Below, piece by piece: positions 46,564 to 60,956 of a stretch of 61,064 nucleotides of DNA (position 1 is the first letter of the stretch; the number at the start of each line of letters is the position of its first letter). The stretch lies in contig CAZWVK010000003.1 in the NCBI GenBank assembly GCA_964636785.1, forward strand, positions 1 to 61,064, read 5' to 3'. A model generated the notes under the pieces. It did no database searches. It was not told where the DNA came from and saw only the letters and a list, made by a program, of their open reading frames with translations. Both the position numbers and the translations under genes were made by a program. This stretch comes from an uncultured Pseudobdellovibrionaceae bacterium. GTDB lineage: Bacteria > Bdellovibrionota > Bdellovibrionia > Bdellovibrionales > UBA1609.

Positions 46564-48012
46564 CTACGATCCAGCACCTGGAGCGAAATTCAGAGGCTTT
46601 CCGCCAGGACGTCTTTGTCCGCCGGAGCTGCTTCCAGGGCCTGGTGGAGGAGCGGTCGGCATTGGCGCGTCGGGGCCGCGAATGAGGTTTTCAAAGATAC
46701 CATACTCTGGAACCCAACGAAGTTTTACGACATCAGTTGGACCGTTTCTTTGTTTTGCAATAATGACTTCGGCTACTCCGCGAATCTCTGGGTTGTCGCG
46801 ATCATAGTAATCTTCACGATAAAGCATTCCGATCACATCAGCATCTTGCTCAATCGAGCCTGATTCACGAAGGTCAGAAAGCATTGGTCGTCGATCCGAT
46901 CGTCCTTCCACACCTCGGTTGAGCTGAGCAAGAGCAATCACAGGGATTTGGAGTTCCTTCGCAATCGATTTTAGAAGTTTTGAAATCTCGCTCACTTCGC
47001 GTTCGCGGCTTTCAACCCTTTGCTTCATTCCCATCAACTGAAGGTAATCCACCATGATCATATCCAGCCCGTGTTTAGCCTTCATACGGCGGGCTTTGGC
47101 GCGAATTTCAAAGGGACTGATACCTGCGGTATCATCGATAAAAAGGCCTGTCTCACTCAAGGCTGCGGCGGTATTAATAAGCCTTGGCCAAGCCTGGTCA
47201 TCAATGCGACCTGTTCTTAAATCACCCATACGAATTCGTGCGGCATTTGCCAGCATACGAACCATAACTGACTCTTTTCCCATTTCCACAGAGAAGTAAG
47301 CGATTTTCTTTTTTTCTTTTAGAGCCGCATGAAGAGCAATATTCAAACTAAAAGCCGTCTTTCCCATGGAAGGTCGGGCTGCGATAATAATCAGTTCGCC
47401 TGGTTGAAATCCAGATGTGAGTTCATCCAGCTCCGCAAATCCAGAGGGAATTCCGGTCACAGTTAACTGTTGTCCGTAGAGAGACTCCAATTTCTCAAGA
47501 CTGGCTTTGACAAGCGTACTTGGATCCGTCAGACCACCTTGAGCGGTCGATTCCGTCAGTTGAAACACTTTGGCTTCAACGGTATCCATGAAAGCTTCCA
47601 TGTTCTCGTAATCGCCATCAAAAGCTTTGGTGATGAAGTCCTGGCTTGTATGGATCACTCGACGAAGAAGCGATTTCTCATGAACAATTTTAGCGTAAGA
47701 AATAATATTCGCAGCAGAAGGTGTTTGATCGATTGTTTCGGCAAGGTAAGCGGCTCCACCTACAGTTTCCAAATCCCCTTTTTCCATCAGAAGATTCGAA
47801 ACCGTGACAAGATCCGCTGGCATATCCCGGCGATGAAGGTCTCGAATCGCGCTAAATATTTTTCGATGTGAAGGCTTGTAAAAATCCTCTTCCGTCAGAA
47901 GATCGGAAACTTCGTCCCAGGCCTCTTGCTCAATCAGCAATCCCCCCAGAACAGATTTTTCTGCGTCAATGTTCTGAGGCGGTAATTTGTGATCTGAAAA
48001 CTTTGACTCCAT
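46564..48012 (-). CDS. dnaB: Replicative DNA helicase DnaB
   Basis: 482 aa. Walker A ARPSMGKTAF is present. There is no intein. A Pro/Gly-rich C-terminal tail of about 35 aa is extra. Confidence 0.97.
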   Translation of the reverse strand: MESKFSDHKLPPQNIDAEKSVLGGLLIEQEAWDEVSDLLTEEDFYKPSHRKIFSAIRDLHRRDMPADLVTVSNLLMEKGDLETVGGAAYLAETIDQTPSAANIISYAKIVHEKSLLRRVIHTSQDFITKAFDGDYENMEAFMDTVEAKVFQLTESTAQGGLTDPSTLVKASLEKLESLYGQQLTVTGIPSGFAELDELTSGFQPGELIIIAARPSMGKTAFSLNIALHAALKEKKKIAYFSVEMGKESVMVRMLANAARIRMGDLRTGRIDDQAWPRLINTAAALSETGLFIDDTAGISPFEIRAKARRMKAKHGLDMIMVDYLQLMGMKQRVESREREVSEISKLLKSIAKELQIPVIALAQLNRGVEGRSDRRPMLSDLRESGSIEQDADVIGMLYREDYYDRDNPEIRGVAEVIIAKQRNGPTDVVKLRWVPEYGIFENLIRGPDAPMPTAPPPGPGSSSGGQRRPGGKPLNFAPGAGS

Positions 48013-48102: not shown

Positions 48103-48414
48103 TTAGGACTGTAATTTTTGTCTCACGCGGATCTTATAGCTATCAATCTTTTTCTTCAAAGTGTTGCGATTGATACCAAGCATTCTAGCCGCACGAACCT
48201 GATTTCCGCGGTGGCTCTCGAGAGCTAACTCGATCAACGGTTTTTCAACCTGCTCTAAAACCAATTTGTGAAGGTCGTCGAGTTCAACTTGAGCATCGTC
48301 TTGTTGCTGAAAAAGAACTTCCAGTTTGCTGCGGACAAGTTTTTCAAGACTAATCGTTTGAAGGTTAGCAACTAAAAGATGATCGGAGTTTTGAAGCGTC
48401 GGTTCTGGCGTCAT
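48103..48414 (-). CDS. fis: Fis-family DNA-binding protein (HTH_8)
   Basis: 103 aa. The C-terminal sequence GNQVRAARMLGINRNTLKKKI is the Fis/NtrC-type HTH. Confidence 0.85.
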   Translation of the reverse strand: MTPEPTLQNSDHLLVANLQTISLEKLVRSKLEVLFQQQDDAQVELDDLHKLVLEQVEKPLIELALESHRGNQVRAARMLGINRNTLKKKIDSYKIRVRQKLQS

Positions 48415-55308: not shown

Positions 55309-57306
55309 ATGGCTAGGCTTATTGCCGTATTGATTGTTTTATTTCCATTGTCATTTGTTCGCGTGGATCAAAGAGGCCAAGCTATATCACCCGTTCTTAT
55401 TCAGCTTGAAAAAGCATCACCTGCATTCGCGGCCTTTGAAGACATGCTGAACGATTACACAGAAGACACTATATACGAAACTGCGAAACAAGCTGTTCAT
55501 CTTTCAAGCGGTGAAATATATGTGCCCGATCATCAAGATCAACACACTCCAGTTCTCTTAACGATCAAACCTCTTAAAATCAAAAAACAGTCTGAGCTTG
55601 TGGCAAGTCTCCCAGAGTGGAAGGATTCAGAATCTTTGCCATCCATTGCGGAGCGAAAAGAAATCTTAGTTGCGAAGCTTTCAAAAGAGATTCTTAGACA
55701 ACCATCACCCGCCGAGCGTGCGCAAGAATTGGTAAAAAAAGAATTGATGAATCGAGATGATGACGTTCGTAAAGTCGCCACGGCATCGGGCGGAGCAATC
55801 ATTGTAAAGAAACCTTCCAGCACCTCCTACTCACCTTATATCCAATCCTCTGGGAGCAACGATAATCCAGCTTCTAATGACGGACACTTTATAACCGGTC
55901 CAATTCGAGTTTCGGGCGGAGTCGGCGAAGCTGGGGAATATTCCAAATGGAGAATTTATCGCGAGCTGAATGGCCGTGTTGCAGAGACGGGGTCTATCAA
56001 TATCTCCGAAGGAGAATTCTCAATCCGCGTGCAAGACAAAACTGGATTTATTGTCGCAGAAGTTGCGGACCATTTTGGCCGAGTATATGGGAAGGGGCGC
56101 GTGTCGCTTCAAGAAGATCTTTTAGCTCTTAAAGTTACACCCGTTACATCCACAACCATCGCAGCTTATACAGGGGATGATTCAGTCCCGACAACATATA
56201 AACCGTTTGGAAACGCATTGCTTGAAACCCAGAGCGAAAAACCAATCGATGTTTCCCATTACTCAGACAATTCACATTTCTTTATTGAAGCTCAAACAAG
56301 AAATCATTTTTCAACAGTGATGATTGGATTTCTTGATTCACTCAAACAGATTCCTCTTTATAAAGACAAAGCGATCAAAGCATTTCGCTCTATTGTTAAG
56401 GGATTTTATCGTGCGATCGATGTTCAGGATCTCGCATTGGTTTGGGGACAAGTTCTAAGAGATGGCCGACCTGTCGAGGGGGCGCAAGTTGAAATTGCAA
56501 CCGGCGAGGGACGAACTATTTATTTCAATGAAATTGGAATACCACGCGGCCAGCTTCAGGAAACAACCTCTTATGGACAGTTTGCGATTGCAAATATTCC
56601 TGAAGGCGTTCAAAGCGTACGGGTATTATATGATGGTCAAACCTTTCCAGCTCAAATTTTTCCAACACTCGCTGGCAAGATTTCGCAATTGAATCTGGAA
56701 GTTCCAACTCAAAGTTTTCACCAGCTTTTGCGAGTTTTCTCGCTTACGGAGAATCATATTGAACCTTCCGCATCAGTAAGGATTCTAGGTTTGGATGAGC
56801 ATATTGAGATCGATGGCTCGGCTGAAATCCCAATACCAGAGCTTGCGGCCGGGGTGACCATTGAAGTCGATGCAGGAATGAATTTTGAAATGTTTAGAAC
56901 TCATCTCCCTCGTTTAAGCACAAATATGGAAATTCATCTGCCCATTATAAAGACAGAGTGGCTGAATCAGATTATGAATTCAGCTCAGGTGAACTTAGAC
57001 CGACGAATGGGCCTTGCGTTCGGATTTGCTGGGCCGTCTGATGCAGAAGTGAAACTACTGAAGAATCAGCAAGGATTACACCGAATTATTTTCTTTGATA
57101 AAGAATTTAATTACTATCCAGGAAATGTTGCGCCGGCTGGTGGTGGGTTTATTGCTGTTAATCTACCTTTAGGTTTTCAGACTTTGGAAGTACGTGGACT
57201 GCATTCAATGCAAGCGCATGCAGAGAGTTTTGTTTCAGAGCCGTACTTTCTTAATTTGATTGGAAGCCAACGTTTTATCAACATCCGCGGGCAAGAAAAC
57301 CTTTAG
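55309..57306 (+). CDS. Hypothetical large secreted protein with a carboxypeptidase-regulatory-like (prealbumin fold) segment
   Basis: 665 aa. It has a signal peptide. The segment GQVLRDGRPVEGAQVEIATGEGRTIYFNEIG...GQFAIANIPEGVQSVRVLYDG resembles CarboxypepD_reg. Confidence 0.55.
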   Translation: MARLIAVLIVLFPLSFVRVDQRGQAISPVLIQLEKASPAFAAFEDMLNDYTEDTIYETAKQAVHLSSGEIYVPDHQDQHTPVLLTIKPLKIKKQSELVASLPEWKDSESLPSIAERKEILVAKLSKEILRQPSPAERAQELVKKELMNRDDDVRKVATASGGAIIVKKPSSTSYSPYIQSSGSNDNPASNDGHFITGPIRVSGGVGEAGEYSKWRIYRELNGRVAETGSINISEGEFSIRVQDKTGFIVAEVADHFGRVYGKGRVSLQEDLLALKVTPVTSTTIAAYTGDDSVPTTYKPFGNALLETQSEKPIDVSHYSDNSHFFIEAQTRNHFSTVMIGFLDSLKQIPLYKDKAIKAFRSIVKGFYRAIDVQDLALVWGQVLRDGRPVEGAQVEIATGEGRTIYFNEIGIPRGQLQETTSYGQFAIANIPEGVQSVRVLYDGQTFPAQIFPTLAGKISQLNLEVPTQSFHQLLRVFSLTENHIEPSASVRILGLDEHIEIDGSAEIPIPELAAGVTIEVDAGMNFEMFRTHLPRLSTNMEIHLPIIKTEWLNQIMNSAQVNLDRRMGLAFGFAGPSDAEVKLLKNQQGLHRIIFFDKEFNYYPGNVAPAGGGFIAVNLPLGFQTLEVRGLHSMQAHAESFVSEPYFLNLIGSQRFINIRGQENL

Positions 57307-58482
57307 CCCTTTTGGTAGGAGGCTATTCTTCTTAACCGCATTGGCCAGATCCAGATTAAATCTTACGAATTCCTCTTCAGACAATTTATAACGCTTGAGC
57401 AATGTCTTCGGGCGTGTCGGTTTTTGAATCTGAGTAATAATAAACTTCTTCTCAGGAAGACGGTGAATATCATCAAACATCAGTTCGTGATATTTTTCAG
57501 CATGAAGTGCAGCCAGAAAGCAGGAATAAAAATTTGAAGAAGCGAATTTAAAATCACCCTTATGATAGCGACTGATAATCGTTGGTAAATGCTCTGACTT
57601 CGCAGCCTTAATGGCCTTTCGAATATTTCCAATTCCATGGTTGTAAGATGTTATTGTAAGCGGCCAGCTTTTTAGTGACCGATGATAACTCTTCAGCAAT
57701 CGTCCGGCCGCTTTTGTGGCTTTTAAAGGATTGTTTCTTTCATCAACGAAATCAGTGACTTTCATATAGGCTTTGCCCGTTCGTGGCATAATTTGCCAAA
57801 TTCCACTCGCTCCAACCCGGCTTTTTGCTTTCGTATTGAAACTCGACTCGACGAATGGCATTCGTGTGAGTTCTTTTGGAAGGCCTTGTGATTCAAACTC
57901 TTCTTCCATATGAGAGAGATAATAGGTGCTCTGTTCAAGGCCGGAATGGAAAAAGTCTTTTTGCCCAAGCTGGGTTCTCACTGAAGACGCAGCCAATGAG
58001 AGCTTTTTTTTCAAAGATGACCCAGGCGTTTCTTTAATGAGCTTCAAATATCTTTTGTGGTTTTCAGTTGGAGTTCGTGATGGGTTCTTTGCCAATTGTT
58101 TTAATATCTTTTGAACTTCGGCCTTTCGAGAGTTCACGAATTTCTGCGCGCGCTCTTTTCTTAGCCACAGCGGCCCTTTGCCACTTTGGACTCGAGCTGT
58201 GACATCAATCACCTCGTAGACGATCCAAGGATAACGGACATGATGAATAACGTGATGGTTTGAACCAAATACAGTGTATATATCAAACCAGAAAGAAACC
58301 CTGTCTTTAAGATCCTTTGGAACTTTAAATTCTGGAGAAATTCGCTGCGCAAAATCAGACAGAATCAACTCGCGCTTTTCATCTAAAGGCGAGGATTTAT
58401 CAATGGCAAATGCCACAGTGGTGAACGAAAGAGAGACTAAAACTGAGAGCCCTAAGGCTATAAAGCGCCGCACAGACATCAA
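57235..58482 (-). CDS. Lytic murein transglycosylase (SLT domain, MltD-like)
   Basis: 415 aa. It has a signal peptide. The catalytic region is FVESSFNTKAKSRVGASGIWQIMPRTG. The C-terminus is degenerate LysM-like. Confidence 0.85.
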   Translation of the reverse strand: MMSVRRFIALGLSVLVSLSFTTVAFAIDKSSPLDEKRELILSDFAQRISPEFKVPKDLKDRVSFWFDIYTVFGSNHHVIHHVRYPWIVYEVIDVTARVQSGKGPLWLRKERAQKFVNSRKAEVQKILKQLAKNPSRTPTENHKRYLKLIKETPGSSLKKKLSLAASSVRTQLGQKDFFHSGLEQSTYYLSHMEEEFESQGLPKELTRMPFVESSFNTKAKSRVGASGIWQIMPRTGKAYMKVTDFVDERNNPLKATKAAGRLLKSYHRSLKSWPLTITSYNHGIGNIRKAIKAAKSEHLPTIISRYHKGDFKFASSNFYSCFLAALHAEKYHELMFDDIHRLPEKKFIITQIQKPTRPKTLLKRYKLSEEEFVRFNLDLANAVKKNSLLPKGLKVFLPADVDKTLASNQIKKVRL

Positions 58483-58673
58483 AATCCATTAAAGCAAGAT
58501 TGATGCCCTGCATATAGATCGAACCTATTGAATCTCCTGACGAAATCTCGCTTTGGGATGTCAAAACTACCGCCTTATGACTAAAAGTGTCACAGCGTCA
58601 GATGCCTTTATCATTGATTTGAGGATGGCCTTTTGTCACTGTAGTTAGGAAATGAAACCCCGTGGAGGAACCT

Positions 58674-58868
58674 ATGTCTGAAGTTTTAGTGGTTACAAGC
58701 AAAGTAAAAAAATTCATTAAAGAGCAAGGCGGTTGCAATACTTCTGGTGAAACCATCGATATGTTGAGCAAAGCCGTTGAGAGACTTTGCCAAAAAGGAA
58801 TGGATTCAGCGAAGGCAGATGGCCGTAAAACGGTTATGGCTCGCGATATCGTTATCGATCACCTTTAA
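58674..58868 (+). CDS. Bacterial histone-fold protein (HBb/Bd0055-like)
   Basis: 64 aa: MSEVLVVTSKVKKFIKEQGGCNTSGETIDMLSKAVERLCQKGMDSAKADGRKTVMARDIVIDHL. It has an alpha1-L1-alpha2-L2-alpha3 layout. The GRKTV..RDI signature parallels archaeal HMfB GRKTIKAEDI. A strong SD (GGAGGA) lies 5 nt upstream. Confidence 0.85.
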   Translation: MSEVLVVTSKVKKFIKEQGGCNTSGETIDMLSKAVERLCQKGMDSAKADGRKTVMARDIVIDHL

Positions 58869-58871
58869 TCT

Positions 58872-60956
<2,085 letters not shown>

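Follow-up and report, generated by a model that had tools for sequence, protein, structure and literature searches.

A probable orthologue of the Bdellovibrio histone HBb beside ligA in an uncultured Pseudobdellovibrionaceae bacterium

Gene content of the locus

The window, by which we mean the whole stretch of 61,064 nucleotides that was analysed, carries on its forward strand a small hbb-like gene (58674..58868) that encodes a single histone-fold protein of 64 aa followed by a TAA stop, with 81% identity to Bd0055/HBb. The start codon ATG lies at 58674 and the stop codon at 58866-58868; the product, MSEVLVVTSKVKKFIKEQGGCNTSGETIDMLSKAVERLCQKGMDSAKADGRKTVMARDIVIDHL, has a mass of 7.0 kDa and a pI of 8.7. 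The first-pass annotation of this DNA had proposed an ORF of 64 aa with the L2/alpha3 signature GRKTV-x-ARDI. The ORF indeed runs from ATG to TAA exactly over 58674-58868, and the signature was recovered at residues G50-R-K-T-V-M-A-R-D-I59. The mechanical list of ORFs gives GTG 58662 as the start. This GTG overlaps the Shine-Dalgarno sequence, and all of the best 80 of 299 relatives encode 64 aa with their N-terminus at the equivalent Met, in the form M-[A/S]-[E/D]-V; for these reasons, we consider ATG 58674 to be the start. The GC content of the gene (41%) is close to that of the window (43%), and we therefore regard the gene as native rather than contaminating.

Both flanking genes lie on the reverse strand. 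Downstream, and convergent with the histone gene, we found the gene of the NAD-dependent DNA ligase LigA (58872..60947; 691 aa; NCBIfam NF005932, 853 bits). Upstream, a divergent gene (57235..58482) encodes an SLT-domain lytic transglycosylase of 415 aa (Pfam PF01464, E 6e-23); this neighbour is conserved only in closer relatives. The 191-bp divergent intergenic region between the transglycosylase and histone genes is taken to contain both promoters. At its other end, the transglycosylase ORF overlaps a 665-aa ORF of the forward strand (55309-57306), the two 3' ends sharing 72 nt (57235-57306). The 3' third of the window is otherwise composed of housekeeping genes: dnaB, a Fis-family gene, a radical-SAM enzyme, ftsK, dapA, dapB and a transaldolase.

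The Fis-like gene that had been pointed out at 48103-48414 is present on the reverse strand, and its product of 102/103 aa matches Pfam HTH_8 (E 1e-16) and scores 65.5 bits with the NCBIfam Fis equivalog, for which the cutoff is 99. It adjoins dnaB (46564-48012) and the radical-SAM gene. Since a Fis protein has been reported from B. bacteriovorus (bioRxiv 10.1101/2025.09.24.678257), the Fis-like gene is an expected part of the nucleoid-protein set.

The convergent arrangement with ligA is common among the relatives. Across the best 80 of the 299 relatives, ligA was found in convergent orientation at most 5 kb downstream of the histone gene in 75 loci. The five loci without a ligA match comprise three with less than 1.4 kb of downstream sequence and two with 2.5 and 3.7 kb. 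In 47 of these 75 loci the two genes are directly adjacent, with at most 150 nt between their stops, and in 14 the distance is 40 nt or less. When the stops are this close (40 nt or less), the histone terminator must lie in the last codons of ligA. In the window, 3 nt separate the two stops, and the hairpin of the histone gene falls inside the last ~20 codons of ligA (58866-58934). With this spacing and with the terminator inside ligA, there is no room for a terminator of ligA itself, and transcripts of ligA would therefore run antisense into the histone gene. We consider it very unlikely that the pairing reflects more than inherited gene order and couples the supply of histone to the transcription of DNA ligase, and hence to replication, through convergent interference or antisense RNA.

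A further observation concerns chromosomal position. In the complete chromosome of Bdellovibrio sp. HCB337 (locus L072, 41521-51712 of 4.28 Mb), the histone gene is found ~46 kb into the record. Assuming that this record starts near the origin, HCB337 and the presence of dnaB, ftsK and ligA in the window suggest that the gene may occupy a conserved position near the origin.

Expression signals and leader

The histone gene is monocistronic, with a strong Shine-Dalgarno sequence and its own terminator. The Shine-Dalgarno sequence GGAGGA (58664..58669, forward strand) is located 4 nt upstream of the ATG, as had been noted from the letters of the window, and practically every one of the best 80 of 299 related loci has a GGAGG-type sequence at this position. 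The dedicated terminator that had been proposed for the gene is supported by folding: an intrinsic-terminator-like hairpin followed by five T residues (58903..58934, forward strand) lies 35 nt downstream of the histone gene, within the last codons of ligA. Its 9-bp stem (AGCACGGGA/TCCCGTGCT) spans 58903-58929 with a 9-nt loop, and the TTTTT run occupies 58930-58934. The 86-nt terminator region folds at -25.5 kcal/mol, with z = -3.9. A consensus terminator scanner called no terminator; the scanner accepts loops of 3-8 nt and the loop is here 9 nt long. Among the related loci listed, most likewise have a hairpin and T-run after the histone gene. Judging from the Shine-Dalgarno sequence, the terminator and what is published on how the orthologue behaves, the histone gene is likely highly expressed.

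The signals upstream of the ribosome-binding site are less clear-cut. A scan for sigma-70 promoters returned one weak candidate on the forward strand (58587..58614), GTGTCA-16-TATCAT, which matches 9 of 12 consensus positions. The closest relative (L001) presents the poor hexamer TCTCGT at the position of the candidate -10 element, and the candidate is not conserved there. We also considered a leader/promoter block on the forward strand (58615..58654) as a family-wide upstream element. This candidate was rejected: the block is shared with L001 only (33 of 40 positions, and 79% over 68 nt) and the other loci match it at the level expected from shuffled sequences. Because only L001 exceeds the shuffle level, this similarity reflects close kinship and not an element of the whole family.

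Several sub-clades possess a promoter-like motif TTGxxx-17/18-TAGACT located 44-76 nt upstream of the ATG (e.g., loci L019, L024, L027, L037, L042, L049, L050, L062 and L067). This motif has no fixed position across the 80 upstream regions and no clear counterpart in the window. Separately, a search of RNA runs returned a single run, X7 (2025, type not on record), with a 247-nt contig that is 99% identical to the window over 58543-58789 at a depth of 2.2. This contig covers the leader and two-thirds of the histone gene from its 5' end and, were X7 a metatranscriptome, would represent a piece of transcript that begins 131 nt upstream of the ATG.

Conservation and family assignment

To gather relatives, each prokaryotic species was represented by one genome and scanned with a sequence pattern combined with tblastn, which yielded 299 confirmed relatives. 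Almost all of the best 80 carry one of the labels Bdellovibrionales, Bdellovibrionaceae, Pseudobdellovibrionaceae or Bdellovibrio, and the histones of these 80 present 80-95% identity to the one described here. Among the matches listed, the closest is the MAG UBA6776, with a histone identity of 95%. For LigA and for the upstream transglycosylase, identity to the UBA6776 counterparts drops to ~68-69%, and the window therefore represents a distinct lineage; relative to the LigA of other genomes, identity ranges from ~50 to 69%. The rarity of such genes in bacteria, as claimed in the first-pass annotation, holds overall. Within the order, an HBb-type gene is the rule, with 299 species genomes matched and a reported presence in 67% of Bdellovibrionota genomes (PMC10627809). 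A profile HMM built from 28 relatives scored 148 bits on the histone ORF and detected no second histone-fold ORF in the six frames of the window.

The histone gene is under strong purifying selection. Relative to the best 80 of 299 relatives, differences at the first, second and third codon positions amount to 726/312/2634. The corresponding pN/pS is ~0.06-0.12, with synonymous sites near saturation (median pS 0.74). In the alignment of the histone and these 80 relatives (81 sequences), 33 of the 64 positions are invariant. These patterns bear on whether a short ORF in a metagenomic window might be a chance ORF, a pseudogene, or archaeal or eukaryotic DNA that contaminated the metagenome bin, a scenario that we regard as virtually impossible. 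Neither the codon-position pattern, with a pN/pS of ~0.1, nor the fixed length of 64 aa in 80 relatives is compatible with a chance ORF. The GC content matches that of the window. A run look-up places the window in sludge metagenomes, and independent runs of that sludge study contain the same contig sequence, 100% identical. The flanking genes are bacterial (NAD-dependent LigA and the SLT transglycosylase) and their arrangement is kept in 75 of the 80 loci. These observations refute a chance or contaminating origin.

The assignment to HBb follows from comparisons of both sequence and fold. A phmmer search against all PDB chains returned Bd0055/HBb as the best match (8FVX, 8FW7, 8CMP, 9EZZ and 9F0E; E 8e-29), with residues 1-64 aligned on residues 1-64. 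Identity is 52/64 (81%) over the full length, and the near-identity in pattern to Bd0055 that the first-pass annotation had noted was thus recovered by direct alignment. The 12 substitutions relative to Bd0055 (A2S, L14F, K18Q, Q20G, M21C, A25G, V30M, I35V, Q37R, L40Q, V43M and E44D) spare all functional positions and sit in loop L1 and on the surface of alpha2, at positions that are variable in the family. At several of them (F14, G20, C21, V35, R37 and Q40), the residue found here is the majority residue among relatives and B. bacteriovorus is the outlier. Two cysteines can be noted in the product. Cys39, in the middle of alpha2, is invariant in 81/81 family members, and Cys21, located in loop L1 beside the DNA-contacting N22, is found in 60/81 members and is replaced by Met in B. 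bacteriovorus HBb.

The AlphaFold2 monomer, which was built on 28 relatives with a moderate pLDDT of 73 and represents a single chain of an obligate dimer, predicts alpha1 at residues 9-17, alpha2 at residues 28-48 (21 residues) and a one-turn alpha3 at residues 56-59 (4 residues). The three-helix histone-fold layout that had been read from the sequence is therefore predicted as well, with a truncated alpha3. A shortened alpha2 and a one-turn alpha3 have also been described for HBb (PMC10627809, PMC11317129). When the model was compared to the PDB with Foldseek, the top five matches were all HBb chains (probability 1.00, 81-82% identity), followed by HLp and by archaeal and eukaryotic histones. 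The TM score to the HBb chains is modest (~0.54), as expected since the model is a lone chain of an obligate dimer.

The first-pass annotation had suggested the Pfam model PF00808 and archaeal histone profiles as checks. The match to PF00808 (CBFD_NFYB_HMF) is borderline, with 21.0 bits against a gathering score of 21.4 (E 4e-4) over residues 29-59 only, and that to the NCBIfam archaeal histone NF043032 reaches 26.5 bits against a cutoff of 50 (E 6e-6). DUF1931 and the core Histone models of Pfam gave only sub-threshold matches. The name given to Bd0055 by the PDB depositors is 'CBFD_NFYB_HMF domain-containing protein'.

These weak archaeal matches, together with those to 1HTA, 1B67 and 5T5K, and the histone fold, RKT...D motif and RD clamp that are common to HMfB, are what might be expected of an archaeal HMf-like nucleosome-type histone, which would form tetramers and wrap DNA into hypernucleosomes. 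We consider such a protein extremely improbable here. The score for NF043032 is far from its cutoff, alpha3 is limited to one turn and alpha2 is short, and identity to archaeal histones is merely 24-30%. Moreover, the tetramerisation His is replaced by Ala48. Bd0055 is reported to fail to wrap DNA since it does not tetramerise, and the three changes A48H/S45F/I61L restore wrapping (Hocher et al., PMC10627809); A48, S45 and I61 are all as in Bd0055, and the archaeal tetramerisation residues are absent.

A second type of tetramer has to be considered given the weaker PDB matches, which were T. kodakarensis HTkC (9F2C) and Leptospira HLp (9QT0), ahead of archaeal histones including 1HTA, 1B67 and 5T5K. 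HLp and HTkC are the next-best matches by both sequence and fold and share the truncated alpha2 and alpha3. They could indicate a face-to-face (FtF) tetrameric histone like HLp, with ~60 bp wrapped around the tetramer. However, the present protein shares only 34% of its residues with HLp and 40% with HTkC, compared with 81% for HBb, which is strictly dimeric. This makes a face-to-face tetramer highly improbable.

The protein instead agrees with the bacterial dimer class (HBb/Bd0055, alpha3-truncated), a class defined by sequence clustering (PMC11390915), in its sequence, its truncated fold, its RKT...D motif, clamp and alpha1 lysines, and in its lack of tetramerisation residues. The features of archaeal nucleosomal histones were not recovered: NF043032 scores under its cutoff, Ala stands at the His position and alpha3 has one turn. 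Overall, our results strongly suggest that the gene is an orthologue of B. bacteriovorus HBb (Bd0055) in the alpha3-truncated class of bacterial dimers, most likely encoding an abundant, dimeric and nonspecific nucleoid protein.

Proposed function and comparison with known histones

The functional residues described for HBb are all conserved. Its main DNA contacts are reported to be N22, R57, S9, T53, T8, S24, K10, K12, K52 and K16, and its RD clamp R51-D58 to be reinforced by D49 (Hu et al., PMC11317129). Each of these residues (T8, S9, K10, K12, K16, N22, S24, K52, T53 and R57, as well as D49, R51 and D58) is present and invariant in the 81 sequences. By analogy with HBb, at 81% identity, two histone chains would form a head-to-tail dimer without tetramerisation. 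The dimer would use the L1-L2 loops and the alpha1 N-terminus to contact the phosphate backbone nonspecifically at minor grooves. As for its orthologue, the histone may be among the most abundant nucleoid proteins and may help to pack the compact nucleoid of the attack phase. Bd0055/HBb is reported to be the nucleoid fraction's most abundant protein, with 10-fold enrichment there (PMC10627809), and to rank among the top 6% of genes by expression (PMC11390915), with a transcript peak in the late growth phase (bioRxiv 10.1101/2025.09.24.678257). Attempts to delete Bd0055 are described as yielding 133 and 150 reversions and zero deletion mutants (PMC10627809), and the histone is probably essential in the present lineage as well.

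The mode of DNA binding is a matter of dispute for HBb. Isolated dimers are reported to bend DNA by ~84 degrees (PMC11317129), and HBb is also described as coating straight DNA end-on, with a nucleohistone filament at high density (PMC10627809). Published work is split between bending and coating; the residues required for both modes are present here and the sequence does not discriminate between them.

It is also conceivable that this histone fold has a non-chromatin role, for instance that of a specific transcription factor or of a protein-complex subunit, and does not organise the nucleoid globally. No in vivo function is established for HBb itself, Bd0055 is reported not to compact the E. 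coli nucleoid (10.1101/2025.09.24.678257), and the authors of two studies caution that some histone folds may have roles unrelated to DNA (PMC10627809, PMC11390915). We nevertheless judge such a role very unlikely. The orthologue tops the nucleoid fraction with the reported 10-fold enrichment (PMC10627809) and, according to published crystals and single-molecule assays, binds DNA without sequence specificity. In addition, the DNA-contact residues are invariant in 81 sequences and the gene is monocistronic, with no conserved operon partner. We therefore retain a dimeric nucleoid protein of the HBb type as the preferred interpretation.

That the family is not new, as the first-pass annotation had cautioned, is clear from the literature: HBb has already been crystallised and studied. 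The histone gene is an ordinary member of this family, whose description dates from 2023-2024 and for which crystal structures exist both in the presence and in the absence of DNA. Our analysis adds one more natural variant and indicates that an HBb-type histone is a fixed, strongly constrained and single-copy feature of uncultured wastewater-sludge Bdellovibrionales. Its value lies mainly in correct annotation, and the histone gene alone raises no new question. The 33 invariant positions out of 64 could guide mutagenesis on the bending versus coating dispute.

The closest known system is HBb/Bd0055 of B. bacteriovorus HD100. The two proteins share their length of 64 aa, 52/64 residues, the DNA contacts, the R51-D58 pair with D49, and A48, S45 and I61. 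They also share the dimer-interface residues L31, L38, V11 and I59, the predicted helix boundaries and the charge count. Their pI values are similar (8.7 here and 8.85 for HBb), as is the convergent ligA neighbourhood. Twelve substitutions, conservative in nature, set them apart; most fall in loop L1 or on the alpha2 surface, and one of them places Cys21 here (as in 60/81 relatives) where HBb has Met. The host is an uncultured sludge lineage, and the terminator is pushed into the coding end of ligA in the window and its nearest relatives.

Similarity to the other characterised histones is more distant. HLp of Leptospira perolatii (9QT0-9QT2) and HTkC (9F2C) would have in common with the present protein a single histone fold with a short alpha2, a one-turn alpha3, an RD clamp and nonspecific binding. 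At 34-40% identity, they are reported to form stable DNA-wrapping tetramers, in contrast to the strictly dimeric HBb class (PMC12701072). HMfA and HMfB (1HTA, 1B67, 1A7W and 5T5K) share the GRKT...D signature and likely also the handshake dimer and backbone contacts in the minor groove. They present 24-30% identity and possess an alpha2 one turn longer and a three-turn alpha3, neither of which is found here. The tetramer interface formed by the His49 four-helix bundle, and the hypernucleosomes, are archaeal features that are predicted from sequence to be absent from the present protein, whose closest counterpart is the dimeric HBb.
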